NCBI GenBank assembly: GCA_903813345.2
Contig: CAIIXF020000001.1
Location: forward strand, 10,354,001 to 10,418,000
DNA: 64,000 bases
Source of the DNA: Owenia fusiformis
Taxonomy: Eukaryota
Direction of reading: 5' to 3'
Shown here: piece by piece, positions 18,501 to 24,500 of the stretch
How positions within the stretch are numbered: position 1 is the first letter of the stretch
Layout of the letters: each line of letters begins with the position of its first letter
Made by a program: the position numbers and the translations under genes
Notes under the pieces: generated by a model
Told to the model about the DNA's origin: nothing
The model's database searches: none
Seen by the model: only the letters and a program-made list of their open reading frames with translations

Positions 18501-21500
18501 TGATATTCCAGGAAATTGAATAAATATTATTATTATTATGAAATTATACTTGAATCTGAGTTTTATAGCAACACCTTTACAACAAAGCAACTAATAAAAT
18601 ATACAAGAAATGTTGTATTATAATAGGTGAATTAGATACTTTCTTCGGTAACACAAAAATGTTAGATATCACATTTTCAGAAAAAAGTTGCCCTGGGTAT
18701 TGTGATGTCATGTTACTATAGTAACCACAACTCTACCCGCATTTCATCATTTTTTCTGAAACTATAATATTTTAGTTGCAATACTTCAATGTACAATTTG
18801 TGAAAATTTGAAGACACTGGGTGCAAAATTGACAAAATGCCAGCACCAGTCCTGTTACTTTTGGAACACCCTGTATACATGTCAAGTAATAGTGTTAGTA
18901 TACATACATGTCAAGTAATAGTGTGAGTATACATACATGTCAAGTTATAGTGTGAGTATACATACATGTCAAGTAATAGTGTGAGTATACATACATGTCG
19001 AGTTATAGTGTGAGTTTACATACATGTCAAGTAATAGTGTTAGTATACATGTCAAGTCATTGGATACATATAAATGACAACTAATATAAGTACATGACAA
19101 GTTATTGCTTAAACATTCAGAGTGATTCAGAAGTAACATCCAAAGGAGTTGCTGTTTCAATACTACTTGACTAATCATGTTTAAACTTGGTACAGATGTA
19201 ATACATTAATGAGTAAAGATATCAAAAATAAACATCTGTACCAAGTTTCACAAAGATTGGTCCAGTAGTATTGCAATAGTAACATCACAATGGCAATTAC
19301 ACTTCTCCTGGCATGTAATTTCAGGCGTGCAGTGATAGGCGTTGGTGTGGAGGAGGAAGATAGGAAACATACCTGGATGGAGGATGCTGAGGCTGTAAGT
19401 AGAATAAAGTATACAATTATTGGTCTTTCTATAGGTTCATAATGAAACCCCTGTAGCTGAGACTGAGACTGTAGATCAAGGTTTACATTTAGGAGTGGAT
19501 ATAATTTGACAGCCAACTGAATAGAGATGTATTAAAAATAAACTGTTTATTGCTCTCTTATCTGACTAAAAGGAGATTTGCTATCAATGCCCAGGCTCTC
19601 ACTGTTTCTTGTTTTCTTTATAGTCTGCCTCACATGGAGTGTATGAGTGTGCAAGAGCTATCTATGAGTGTGCAAGAGCTATCTATACCCAGGCACTCGC
19701 TATTACTTGTTTTCTTCATAGTCTGCCTCACACAGAGCGTATGAGTGTCAAGAGCTATCTATGCCCAGGCACTCACTGTTTCTTGTTTTCTTTATAGTCT
19801 GCCTCACATGGAGTGTATGAGTGTGCAAGAGCTATCTATGAGTGTGCAAGAGCTATCTATGAGTGTGCAAGAGCTATCTATACCCAGGCACTCGCTATGC
19901 TATTACTTGTTTTCTTTATAGTCTGCATCACATGGGGGGTAGGAGTGTGCAAGAGCTATCTATGCCCAGGCACTCACTATTTCTTGTTTTCTTTATAGTC
20001 TGCATCACATTGGGCGTATGAGTGTGCAAGAGCTATCTATGCCCAGGCACTCACTATGAGTGTGCAAGAGCTATCTATGCCCAGGCACTCACTGTTTCTT
20101 GTTTTTCTTTATAGTCTGCATCACATGGAGTGTATGAGTGTGCAAGAGCTATCTATGAGTGTGCAAGAGCTATCTATACCCAGGCACTCGCTATTACTTG
20201 TTTTCTTTATAGTCTGCATCACATGGGGGGTATGAGTGTGCAAGAGCTATCTATGCCCAGGCACTCACTATTTCTTGTTTTCTTTATAGTCTGCATCACA
20301 TTGGGCGTATGAGTGTGCAAGAGCTATCTATGCCCAGGCACTCACTATTTCTTGTTTTCTTTATAGTCTGCATCACATGGGGCGTATGAGTGTGCAAGAG
20401 CTATCTATGCCCAGGCACTCACTATTTCTTGTTTTCTTTATAGTCTGCATCACATGGAGCGTATGAGTGTGCAAGAGCTATCTATGCCCAGGCACTCACT
20501 ATTTCTTGTTTTCTTTATAGTCTGCATCACATGGAGCGTATGAGTGTGCAAAAGCTATCTATGCCCAGGCACTCACTATTTCTTGTTTTCTTTATAGTCT
20601 GCCTAACATGGAGCGTATGAGTGTGCAAAAGCTATCTATGCCCAGGCATTCACTATTTCTTGTTTTCTTTATAGTCTGCATCACATGGAGCGTATGAGTG
20701 TGCAAGAGCTATCTATGCCCAGGCACTCACTATTTCTTGTTTTCTTTATAGTCTGCATCACATGGAGCGAATGAGTGTGCAAGAGCTATCTATGCCCAGG
20801 CACTCACTATTTCTTGTTTTTCTTTATAGTCTGCATCACATGGGGCGTATGAGTGTGCAAGAGCTATCTATGCCCAGGCACTCACTATTTCTTGTTTTCT
20901 TTATAGTCTGCGTCACATGGAGCGAATGAGTGTGCAAGAGCTATCTATGCCCAGGCACTCACTATTTCTTGCTTTCTTTATAGTCTGCATCACATGGAGC
21001 GTATGAGTGTGCAAGAGCTATCTATGCCCAGGCACTCACTATTTCTTGTTTTCTTTATAGTCTGCATCACATGGAGCGTATGAGTGTGCAAGAGCTATCT
21101 ATGCCCAGGCACTCACTATTTCTTGTTTTCTTTATAGTCTGCATCACATGGGGCGTATGAGTGTGCAAGAGCTATCTATGCCCAGGCACTCACTATTTCT
21201 TGTTTTCTTTATAGTCTGCATCACATGGAGCGAATGAGTGTGCAAGAGCTATCTATGCCCAGGCACTCACTATTTCTTGCTTTCTTTATAGTCTGCATCA
21301 CATGGAGCGTATGAGTGTGCAAGAGCTATCTATGCCCAGGCACTTACTATTTCTTGTTTTCTTTATAGTCTGCATCACATGGAGCGTATGAGTGTGCAAG
21401 AGCTATCTATGCCCAGGCATTCACTATTTCTTGTTTTCTTTATAGTCTGCATCACATGGAGCGTATGAGTGTGCAAGAGCTATCTATGCCCAGGCACTCA

Positions 21501-24500
21501 CTATTACTTGTTTTCTTTATAGTCTGCATCACATGGAGCGTATGAGTGTGCAAGAGCTATCTATGCCCAGGCACTTATTATTTCTTGTTTTCTTTATAGT
21601 CTGCATCACATGGAGCGTATGAGTGTGCAAGAGCTATCTATGCCCAGGCACTCACTATTACTTGTTTTCTTTATAGTCTGCATCACATGGAGCGTATGAG
21701 TGTGCAAGAGCTATCTATGCCCAGGCACTTATTATTTCTTGTTTTCTTTATAGTCTGCATCACATGGAGCGTATGAGTGTGCAAGAGCTATCTATGCCCA
21801 GGCACTAACTGTGTTTGCCAGCAAGAAGAGTATTTGGTTGAGGGCTGCATACTTTGAGAAGAACCATGGATCAAGGTAATGTAATAAGTGAACAGGGATA
21901 TTAAAAGGTTTAGCATTAATATTATAGGAAACCAATAACCATTACTATGTTTTTCCCCTATTTTCTTAAATAAAATATGCTAAAATAAAATTTGTGTAAA
22001 ACTTTAAAGCTCTCATGTTATGTTCTGCACCCATCTCATCCCAAGATTTGGTCAGGGGAAATAAAGTGGAGGGAAATACAGATGAGAGGCTTGATGATAC
22101 AGGTGTAAGGTTGATGATATACATGTAAGTACATGATACATGTTACTTCCAGGGAATCTCTAGAGGCATTACTACAGAGGGCAGTTGCCCATTGCCCCAA
22201 GGCAGAAATGCTTTGGCTAATGGGAGCCAAGTCAAAGTGGCTAGCGGTAGGTTATTTTTCATTTTACGTATACATGTAGAAAGTAGCATTACTCAGATCA
22301 ATATATATATCTCCAAAAATGCATCATGTTGCACATTTGTCTGATAACTTTCAATGAATAAAGTTGTGTATATCTTTTTGGAATTTCTTTACCCCTGTCA
22401 TCTTACAAGGTTTGTAGGTAGAAATACAGTACAGTGTATACTGAATTCAAAAAAGAGTTTTTTAAGAAACCAAACAGTTCCGAAATGGTCTCTTGAAAAA
22501 TGAAAATATTTATTTTCCTTCTATGTTTTTTCATGTTTTCCACTACTTTGCTATTTCACAGGGAGATGTGCCAGCTGCAAGAAGTATCCTGGCTTTAGCC
22601 TTCCAGGCCAATCCTAACAGTGAGGAGATTTGGCTGGCTGCTGTTAAGCTTGAGAGTGAAAACAATGAGTTTGAGAGAGCCAGGAGATTGCTACAGAAAG
22701 CCAGGACTAGTGCCCCAACAGCCAGAGTTAGTATTGCTTTTATTATCATTATTATGTGCCCATTACTATGCTTAAAAATGTGGTTATATCAGTACATGTA
22801 GGAGTTATATCTCGAAAGTATTTTAGATTAACATTATACAGGGTGACCCAAAAAAAATGCAACCCTCCATTTCTTCAATATTTTTCTTAAATGGAGGTAA
22901 ATTGCTCTGAGATTTGGCACACAAGGACTTCATTCAATGTGGGATCCTCTGGCAAAGTTTCAATAATCATAGTCTTATATTGATAGAGTTATGGCCGTTC
23001 CAAAATATGCTCCAAATATCGTCCATTTCCAATGTTAGGTTTTCGGATGAATCACATTCCCTTCTTTCTGAACATGTAAACTCAAGAAATAATGTGTTCT
23101 GGGATCACAAATTCCAGATGAAGTGCTTCAAAGGCCCCTTCATTCTGTTTAATGCACAGCTCGGGCTGCCAATTTCCAAACATGAAATCATCAGCCCCTT
23201 TTGGTTTGAGGTTGATAATGGCTACACTGTTACTGTTAACACACAGCGCAATATTGGCGTTCCCAGGAAGTTCTAGGCAGTTCTAGAGTGACATAGAGGC
23301 TTCAATAGACAAGAACAGTGGTTCTAGAAGGATGGAGCTATTCTTCACACTTCTAATGATAGCATAACCTCGCTCACTAGTCATTTTTATGAGAAGATTA
23401 TCTCTCCTAGGACGAAGAACCCATGGTAATCCCACAGTCTTGATCTCAATGCCCTTGACTTCTATATATGCGGTTATTTAAAGGATAATGTGTATGAAAA
23501 TAACCCTACCGCAATTGCAGAGCTCCAACAAGTAATGGCTGCAAAAATTTGAGCCAAAACCATGGGGAAAATGCATCTGTGTTATGAACAGTTTTCCTTG
23601 AAAATTGCAAGTTTGTTTTCAGCGAAATTGACGACATCTGGAGCATATTTTGAAACAATGATTTCTCTATCAATATAAAACTATGATTATTCAAACTTTA
23701 CCAGAGGATCCCACATTGAATGAAGTTCTTGTGTGCCAAATCTCAGAGCAATTTACCTCCATTTAAGAAAAATATTGAAGAAATGGAGGGTTGCATTTTT
23801 TTTGGGTCACCCTGTATATATTTCATAACTGTCAAAACTTATCAATATGTGGTTACATGATTTTAGATTTTTATGGGGTTCAAAGTGTTATATAAAGTCT
23901 GGGTTTTGAAGGATTTTTTGACGATTAAATGTGTCCTCAGACATAAGAGATTTTAGTGAATCCTTTATGTTTGAACACAAATTGTTAACCCTTGGTTGGG
24001 TCGAGTTATCAGTGTGATTGTTATTTGTTATACTTTCACGTATACTATGATGTGTCTCATTGTGTCTTATACTATGATGTGTCTCATTGTCTAGGTGTTC
24101 ATGAAGTCTGTTAAGCTGGAATGGTGTCTTGGTGACATGAAGACGGCTGAGGATTTACTAGATGATGCACTTAACCAGTACCCTGATTTTGCCAAAGTAA
24201 GTTACTTATAACGGATCTGCTTGCCTTGCCACCACTACATTCACAGTCCATCCCTATAGATGGAAGGACACTTAACCTATGATGCCTTGGCCTAAAGTTT
24301 AATCCCCAGTTCAGAAAATACCAATTACATTATTGCATTTTGTCCTTGTTTGTCACTTTGTCAATAATATGGTGTTTAACGGTATAAAAGAATGAGGGCT
24401 TCTTCAAGATTATCACGATTCATTATTATATATTTGAATTATTAATTATGGCCCCTGTGTTTGTATATTCTAGAAATTCAATGAAGCAGCACTTTATCTA

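Follow-up and report, generated by a model that had tools for sequence, protein, structure and literature searches.

Tandem arrays of splice sites span two exon–intron boundaries of the PRPF6 gene of Owenia fusiformis

The PRPF6 gene and its two array-bearing introns

We analysed a stretch of 64,000 nucleotides from Owenia fusiformis (NCBI GenBank assembly GCA_903813345.2, contig CAIIXF020000001.1, positions 10,354,001 to 10,418,000 of the forward strand); the whole stretch is called the window, and all coordinates given below are window positions. The window contains part of the gene encoding pre-mRNA-processing factor 6 (PRPF6). This gene is essential and well expressed; two of its neighbouring introns harbour tandem arrays, with 27 identical complete 3′ modules in one intron and 21 identical donors in the other. 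The features of the array-bearing region are listed below, together with the evidence on which each is based.

17273–17381, plus strand: PRPF6 exon encoding amino acids 478–514, source of the 29-bp unit (last 26 nt plus donor); exon chain translation.
17356–17821, plus strand: donor array part 1, the true donor and 14 decoys; Tandem Repeats Finder (TRF), 16.1 copies, 91% matches, and donor list.
17820–18875, no strand assigned: transposon-like insertion splitting the donor array, with 192-nt terminal inverted repeats and TA at each flank; inverted-repeat arms.
18875–19050, plus strand: donor array part 2, six decoys; TRF, 6.1 copies, 93%, and donor list.
19325–19394, plus strand: 70-nt PRPF6 exon encoding amino acids 515–537, located between both array-bearing introns, donor GAGGCT/gtaagt; exon chain and RNA contig end.
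19395–19579, plus strand: unique sequence (185 nt) at the 5′ side of the intron, approximately the size of the intron prior to array growth; sequence, TRF and exon chain.
19580–20212, plus strand: older irregular part of the acceptor array, six acceptors, unit lengths of 76–124 nt, with 21-bp and 38-bp sub-duplications; TRF, acceptor list and unit rows.
20213–21753, plus strand: regular part of the acceptor array, 20 decoy acceptors in 77-nt units (one of 78 nt); TRF row 20154–21810.
21754–21875, plus strand: true PRPF6 exon encoding amino acids 538–578, entered via the 27th acceptor (AG at 21752–21753), donor GT at 21876; exon chain, protein matches and spliced contigs of runs X6 and X7.
22153–22246, plus strand: next PRPF6 exon, joined to 21875 in RNA contigs; joint 21875/22153 in one contig each of X6 and X7, and exon chain.

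The identity of the gene is well established. The peptide encoded by exon 21754–21875 (40 residues) is 100% identical to a 929-aa Owenia fusiformis protein, which its sources name pre-mRNA-processing factor 6. Altogether, 146 database proteins gave a score; where named by the source, almost all of them are PRPF6 from other animals. The same peptide also matches the human PRPF6 chains in structures of the tri-snRNP (the tri-small nuclear ribonucleoprotein), with E values of 3.5e-20 and 7.6e-20; residues 552–589 were aligned at 7.6e-20. The 929-aa protein contains Pfam PRP1_N (E 3.6e-53) and families of HAT/TPR repeats, which places it in the PRPF6/Prp6 family. Using a script that chooses GT/AG boundaries, we picked a chain of 14 exons (15579–26754, plus strand); joined in silico, their translation equals residues 384–929 exactly. 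All these results bear out the gene name PRPF6 proposed by the first-pass annotation, which had been made from the sequence alone. Residues 1–383 of the annotated protein are not encoded within the window, including the 15.5 kb upstream of the first exon found (1–15578); the first half of the gene is located further away, outside this region.

The PRPF6 exons in the window are 68–165 nt in length. Among the 11 array-free introns, nine are of 221–363 nt and the remaining two are of 1190 and 1368 nt. The array-bearing introns, 1943 and 2359 nt in length, are the longest in this part of the gene. After subtraction of the arrays and the insertion, the donor-array intron would measure ∼280 nt and the acceptor-array intron ∼185–230 nt, resembling most of their neighbours.

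The acceptor array

The acceptor array precedes exon 21754–21875. A pattern scan with ..ttctt[ct]atag/TCTGC (the slash marks the boundary) identified exactly 27 sites, with first exon-like bases at 19624, 19722 and so on to 21677 and 21754. The spacings between these acceptors are, in order, 98, 76, 124, 77, 116 and 98 nt, seven of 77 nt, one of 78 nt and 12 of 77 nt; 20 of the 26 are thus exactly 77 nt. TRF reported a 77-bp period at 20154–21810 (21.5 copies, 96% matches, score 3095), together with less regular, overlapping rows that extend back to 19580. The array starts with six or seven irregular units; internal sub-duplications of 21 bp and 38 bp and one extra T account for the irregular spacings (98, 76, 124, 116, 98 and 78 nt).

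In each unit, the first 53 nt of the exon are preceded by a branch-like motif of the CTCAC type, a 20-nt pyrimidine tract and TAG. The decoy acceptors are identical to the true acceptor from about −44 to +53. The true exon and the unit consensus diverge after +53; at +54, the exon has A and the units have C. Only the 27th acceptor continues into exon 21754–21875 and its GT at 21876, and the continuation that marks this site as opposed to the decoys is CACTAACTGTG. The units are arranged head-to-tail, the intron–exon junction lies inside the unit, and the last unit is continuous with the exon; the array is therefore a boundary-spanning minisatellite. We also considered tandem acceptors of the NAGNAG type; they were rejected, because the acceptors lie 76–124 nt apart and no two of them share a branch-like motif or tract.

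The first-pass annotation had described 27 near-identical acceptors, the anatomy of the unit and a single, last acceptor running on into the exon, all of which TRF and the pattern scan confirmed. The upstream donor that it placed at 19394 is likewise correct, as gtaagt follows the end of that exon. Its view that the unit copies the start of the exon holds; the copied length of ∼56 nt was slightly generous, given the divergence past +53.

The donor array and its inserted element

The preceding intron opens with a 29-bp array, which is the mirror image of the acceptor array and copies the donor of exon 17273–17381. The 29-bp unit consists of the last 26 nt of this exon plus GTG, so that each unit rebuilds the donor AGT/GTGAGT. 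Scanning with AGT/GT[GT]AGT, we found 21 donors: the true one at 17382, 14 decoys at 17409–17786 and six decoys at 18894–19039. The decoys are identical to the true donor from −26 to +9. With 21 sites, and with the end of the exon as its first unit, this array is of the same boundary-spanning class as the acceptor array. The 70-nt exon 19325–19394 consequently follows an intron with ∼20 spare donors and precedes one with 26 spare acceptors.

The donor array is split by one inserted element of ∼1.05 kb, and one extra, cut 29-bp unit abuts this element. The arms of the element (17820–18011 and 18684–18875) are 81% complementary. A resemblance to mariner-type transposases is presumed; the longest open reading frame (ORF) of the element has no Pfam match at E 0.01. 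Since the 29-bp array is split by the element, the array predates the insertion.

A third small tandem duplication at a PRPF6 exon boundary was observed at 24039–24092, where a 27-bp tract segment is duplicated once before the acceptor of exon 24095–24196. The first copy contains no AG and does not provide a spare acceptor.

Reading-frame consequences of decoy use

When the upstream acceptors were joined in silico to exon 19325–19394, all 26 gave a stop 2–84 codons past the junction, and only the 27th stayed open; the early stops that the first-pass annotation had claimed for any upstream acceptor were thereby confirmed. A shift by three units (231 nt) restores the frame, yet the stops come earlier. 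On the donor side, read-through of the true donor at 17382 meets an immediate TGA, so that every one of the 20 decoy donors truncates the protein. In silico, all decoy acceptors and all decoy donors are thus alternative sites that give a premature stop, as in alternative splicing coupled to nonsense-mediated decay (AS-NMD; NMD for the decay itself).

Site usage in assembled contigs

The sequencing data comprise 12 coded runs of one organism from three studies; they consist of assembled contigs and are presumed to be RNA. We compared contigs of the runs X1, X2, X6 and X7 with 21700–22300, which covers one acceptor, the true exon, the next intron and the next exon. Gaps in contig coverage, at 21700–21741 (X6 and X7), 21889–22119 (all) and 21826–21867 (X1 and X2), were not counted as evidence. 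X6 and X7, two runs from two studies, are RNA as judged by the spliced joint 21875/22153.

In one 445-nt contig of X7, 30 nt of the end of exon 19325–19394 (with one silent difference) directly adjoin 21754 and are followed by 21754–21873 and then by the next exon. One X6 contig has 13 nt of exon 19325–19394 directly before 21754, and another X6 contig, of 1313 nt and with a word depth of 735, runs from 21785 across the joint 21875/22153 into the following exons. The last acceptor is therefore used productively in mRNA contigs from two studies; the annotated protein likewise requires the junction of 19394 to 21754. No product of an upstream acceptor was found in the contigs of 21700–22300; assembled contigs drop rare or NMD-degraded forms, and we treat this result as silence, not as evidence.

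X6 also contains four variants of 21754–21801 and two variants of 21772–21814, in contigs of 48 and 43 nt. We rejected the possibility that they are RNA from decoy units: judged from contig geometry, they fit two single-letter variants, at 21771 and 21784, seen through 31-letter words. These two positions differ from those at which the regular decoy units of the window vary. As both variants occur in contigs reaching the true exon and are possibly silent, we take the sample to be mixed and the true exon to vary in it. By the same derivation, the position matching 21784 seems to be variant in decoy-type contigs of X1 too, which would fit exchange between exon and array. Elsewhere the RNA contigs differ from the window at 19370 (T to C, silent) and at 22207 (A to G).

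Different from X6 and X7, the runs X1 and X2 look like DNA, with one unspliced contig across the 22153 boundary, one adaptor-like loose end and no spliced joint; the loose end is presumably a transposase-library adaptor. Contigs of X1 and X2 with tract, acceptor and exon start have word depths of 158–212 (184–212 in X1, with no difference from the window), compared to 14 for the one single-copy contig of X1; X2 yielded the same array contigs as X1, and array contigs only. Were these runs RNA, the array would be 13–15 times over-represented relative to the exon. Word depth is no copy number, and these values give a rough hint that the unit is repeated many-fold in other libraries and that the array is not private to the assembly.

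Divergence and origin of the arrays

The 20 units of exactly 77 nt differ from their consensus at 28 of 1540 positions (1.8%) over the whole array. Of these differences, 24 are located in the exon-derived part, which contributes 1120 positions, and 4 in the intron-derived part, which contributes 420; within the units, neither the tract nor the AG is clearly more constrained than the rest. By our own arithmetic, about one AG loss is expected among the 26 spare AGs at this divergence, so the 27 intact AGs are unremarkable and selection is not needed to explain them. The low divergence suggests either youth or homogenisation.

Unit variants recur in blocks of two to four units; for example, ..A.. 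and ..T.T.. tails alternate in the last five units. One G/A/C variant pattern of the acceptor array is repeated four units apart, and in the donor array a 5-unit (145 bp) variant block is found both before and after the insertion. Towards its 5′ end, the acceptor array is more scrambled and older. Such a picture is that of the usual growth of minisatellites by unequal exchange.

The duplication junctions have short similarity between the exon side and the intron side, CACT[A/C]ACTGT.. in the acceptor array and AGTATAC in the donor array, and in our reading this similarity suggests slippage as the origin. The unit derives from the exon, and not the exon from the unit, since the copied peptide matches conserved positions of human PRPF6. 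Creation of introns by tandem duplication was also considered and does not describe this locus: the partner sites, namely the donor at 19395 and the acceptor AG at 19323–19324, lie outside the arrays.

Other features of the window

Two further arrays, at 1390–2219 and 50888–52247, share one 136-bp tandem unit. They are 49 kb apart, contain 5.5 and 9.5 copies, respectively, and each follows the same 32-bp repeat; a dispersed satellite is one possible identity of the unit, a piece of a mobile element another. Four regions of the minus strand were assigned provisionally by reading their translations. The ORFs at 7681–9858 are candidate remains of a mobile element. The long ORFs at 30669–34649 would encode an acyltransferase (E2)-like protein with an Ala/Pro linker, those at 41929–43437 a methyltransferase-like protein, and those at 58305–61219 an NHL-repeat protein with two death-domain-like exons.

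Interpretation

We consider it probable, though well short of certain, that the arrays are tolerated minisatellites that span exon–intron boundaries, that the exon-proximal site is chosen, and that NMD serves as backstop. In that case the arrays would have no function of their own. Their origin would lie in slipped or unequal tandem duplication of short segments that chanced to straddle boundaries of PRPF6: one 77-bp segment (21–24 nt of intron end plus 53–56 nt of exon start) would have grown to 27 copies before exon 21754–21875, and one 29-bp segment (26 nt of exon end plus GTG) to ∼21 copies behind exon 17273–17381. Introns of roughly 200–300 nt would thereby have been inflated to 1943 and 2359 nt. 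The spliceosome would take the copy that adjoins the rest of the exon, which is the last acceptor or the first donor, and the other copies would leave with the intron, so that the protein is unharmed. Transcripts made from any other copy would carry an early stop far upstream of later junctions and would presumably be targets of NMD.

Recognition of splice sites across the exon, or exon definition, is an established rule, and it is the likely cause of the choice. Downstream of the true acceptor, and of no other, the exon continues into its purine-rich remainder and reaches a good donor after 122 nt; upstream of the true donor, and of no other, stands the real exon, with an acceptor at a distance of 109 nt. 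Among the sites of the arrays, the productive acceptor is the one farthest from its donor, and the productive donor, as given by the annotation, is the one farthest from its acceptor. This pattern is what cross-exon recognition predicts; for the acceptor, it is the opposite of what rules of the nearest partner or of the first-transcribed site predict.

Several points weigh against this reading. Two boundary arrays in neighbouring introns are more than expected: if one random 77-bp and one random 29-bp duplication are placed in the 11.2-kb gene part with its 26 boundaries, both would straddle a boundary with a chance of ∼1%, by our own rough and post hoc arithmetic. PRPF6 is a core spliceosome component, and genes of this class often limit their own output through unproductive splicing. 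Nor is it obvious that exon definition by itself would shut out the closest decoys: exons entered at the last two decoy acceptors would be 199 and 276 nt long, and those ending at the first six decoy donors would be shorter than about 290 nt, sizes that are generally considered workable. One simple first-come-first-served rule would favour the first acceptor, which is transcribed 2.1 kb earlier. Finally, use of the first donor is implied by the annotated protein, and the mRNA evidence consists of assembled contigs, in which rare or decayed forms would be hidden.

Constant leakage into the decoys, costly and free of regulation, is an unlikely explanation, yet one that deserves some weight. According to it, an appreciable share of transcripts always uses decoys, such as the earlier-transcribed acceptors, and is removed by NMD; the arrays would then be mildly harmful alleles, persisting by drift or balanced by compensating transcription. 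The identity of the decoys with the true sites, over the −26 to +9 interval of the donors and the interval from about −44 to +53 of the acceptors, fits this view, as do two human precedents in the parts of the reports considered here: the pseudo-sites of F7 are functional once the true site is removed (PMC1557585), and the second unit of ABCA7 is used at low level (PMC5954066). Against it, canonical mRNA is plentiful in the deeply sequenced RNA run (contig word depth 735), and the silent F7 sites, as far as that same part of the report goes, do not compete at all (PMC1557585).

Regulated decoys are rather less probable. Here the arrays would be a dosage device, in which decoy splicing, or detained introns binding U1, U2AF and U2, depends on the capacity of the spliceosome and feeds back on PRPF6 through NMD. 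All 26 decoy acceptors and 20 decoy donors lead to an early stop, both arrays flank one 70-nt exon, and two boundary arrays in one gene are unlikely by chance on the ∼1% estimate given above. In humans, the portion of the ABCA7 report consulted states that array length tracks exon skipping and that the second-unit donor is used at low level (PMC5954066), and tandem-repeat length is widely linked to splicing, again by the portion consulted (PMC10078293). However, the contigs contain no decoy product, although a rare one could not show there, and the splice signals in the units are without extra conservation. The very low divergence and the block-wise variants point to recent, ongoing expansion rather than to an old conserved element; nor is it obvious how the amount of PRPF6 in particular could bias the selection between identical sites. 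No paper on autoregulation of PRPF6 by unproductive splicing was found among the texts consulted, which were seen in part.

In its most specific form, which we hold to be more doubtful still, both arrays would constitute one device round the 70-nt exon 19325–19394; the spare donors and the spare branch, tract and AG modules would sequester U1, U2AF and U2, so that removal of both introns becomes slow and prone to error to a degree set by the supply of tri-snRNP, with feedback through detained introns and NMD. If this were true, array length would be a heritable dial on a core spliceosome protein, and the acceptor array would be the first functional natural acceptor-side splice-site array. The first-pass annotation had offered two readings of the locus. 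One, a natural test of exon definition, fits the use of the last acceptor in the X6 and X7 contigs; the other, a decoy/NMD rheostat, is not supported and is less likely in view of the lack of signal conservation, the drift-like variant blocks, the mirror donor array and the F7 precedent.

An assembly artefact, with the assembler producing the array or raising its number of copies, is very improbable. Long tandem arrays are in general error-prone in assemblies; the array under study, however, consists of distinct unit variants in ordered blocks with an older irregular end, X1 has array contigs at 13–15 times the word depth of the neighbouring single-copy contig and X2 has array contigs too, and an insertion that brought its own target duplication lies within the second array, something that an assembler does not make. 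Masking of the decoys by RNA structure, through folding of the arrays or pairing between them that leaves the outer sites free, is the least credible: the donor unit contains CAAGTAATAGT, an exact 11-nt complement of ACTATTACTTG in an acceptor-unit variant, yet the energies of inter-array duplexes were matched or beaten by 177, 73 and 184 of 300 shuffled donor arrays, the folds of four array segments have z values of −0.50 to +0.73 relative to shuffles, and the authors of the F7 study, in the part considered, likewise found no structure that explains the choice (PMC1557585).

How the spliceosome selects among equivalent sites has long been debated and still is. Returning to tolerated minisatellites as the preferred reading, the present analysis does not support the status of a demonstrated regulator; the locus is a natural test of splice-site choice, at which one could measure, in a single place, how often each site is used in error and how this frequency declines with distance. 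If the arrays are merely tolerated, they attest to the robustness of site choice and to ten-fold growth of introns by boundary slippage without harm. If instead array length affects the dosage of PRPF6, a spliceosome component would be under heritable control of a new type.

Comparison with known systems

The closest relative of the donor array is found in the human F7 gene, in which intron 7 carries a 37-bp VNTR (variable number of tandem repeats) whose first unit spans the exon 7 boundary; it carries 5–9 identical donors, and splicing takes place solely at the one farthest upstream (Borensztajn et al. 2006, PMC1557585; consulted in part, as are all the sources cited below). The extra F7 donors were functional when tested by mutagenesis and silent otherwise, and the part considered assigns no regulatory role to them (PMC1557585). 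The 29-bp donor array has the same anatomy as that VNTR. The exon-proximal site is used in F7, as the annotated protein implies for PRPF6, and most of the other sites in F7 are frame-shifting. Compared to the 5–9 donors there, PRPF6 has ∼21; its unit measures 29 bp, and an inserted element divides the array. An acceptor-side counterpart is, as far as described in that part, absent from F7, whereas here the branch region, the tract and the AG are copied 27 times. The host of the present arrays is an annelid and the gene encodes a spliceosome protein. Moreover, site usage was determined by mutagenesis in F7, and here it derives from assembled contigs for the acceptors or from the annotated protein for the donors.

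Intron 18 of human ABCA7 contains a 25-bp VNTR of 12 or more units, which starts with the exon 18 donor (De Roeck et al. 2018, PMC5954066). Its second-unit donor is used at low level, which retains one unit and introduces a premature stop; exon skipping, altered splicing and dosage are associated with the length of the array (PMC5954066). Like the 29-bp array, it opens with the canonical donor of the exon, and use of a decoy leads to a premature stop. Different from the PRPF6 arrays, it is restricted to the donor side, its unit is intron sequence from the GT on and has no exon piece, and it is associated with human disease.

Experiments by Lang and Spritz and by Kuhne et al., both in 1983, reportedly used engineered duplicated globin splice sites and supplied arguments for or against scanning models. 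According to the discussion in the F7 report, the two-copy duplicated sites in globin constructs gave contradictory outcomes (PMC1557585). As in the PRPF6 introns, identical donors or acceptors competed within one intron in these constructs; they were two artificial copies, compared to 27 and 21 natural copies here. With regard to the scanning question, the acceptor used here is the farthest from its donor, contrary to a simple 5′-to-3′ search.

AS-NMD events and poison exons resemble the present case in that a splicing gene has alternative sites that give a premature stop. The known cases involve one conserved alternative exon or site, which is bound by the factor itself, whereas the PRPF6 arrays comprise dozens of young, identical copies, which yielded no alternative product in the contigs and are not known to be linked to binding by PRPF6. 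Intron gain and intron sliding by tandem duplication have also been described (PMC4974935, PMC2891723). There, too, a duplication including splice signals is spliced out and the protein is unchanged; in those events, however, two copies supply both ends of a new intron, whereas here existing introns were lengthened and none was created.

Full-text word searches of the literature did not find any natural acceptor-side splice-site array, the relevant matches being the F7 and ABCA7 donor cases only, and no paper was found on Owenia together with PRPF6. The donor array is a larger member of the kind known from F7 and ABCA7; the acceptor array, and the pairing of two arrays round one small exon of a spliceosome gene, extend that kind in a new way.

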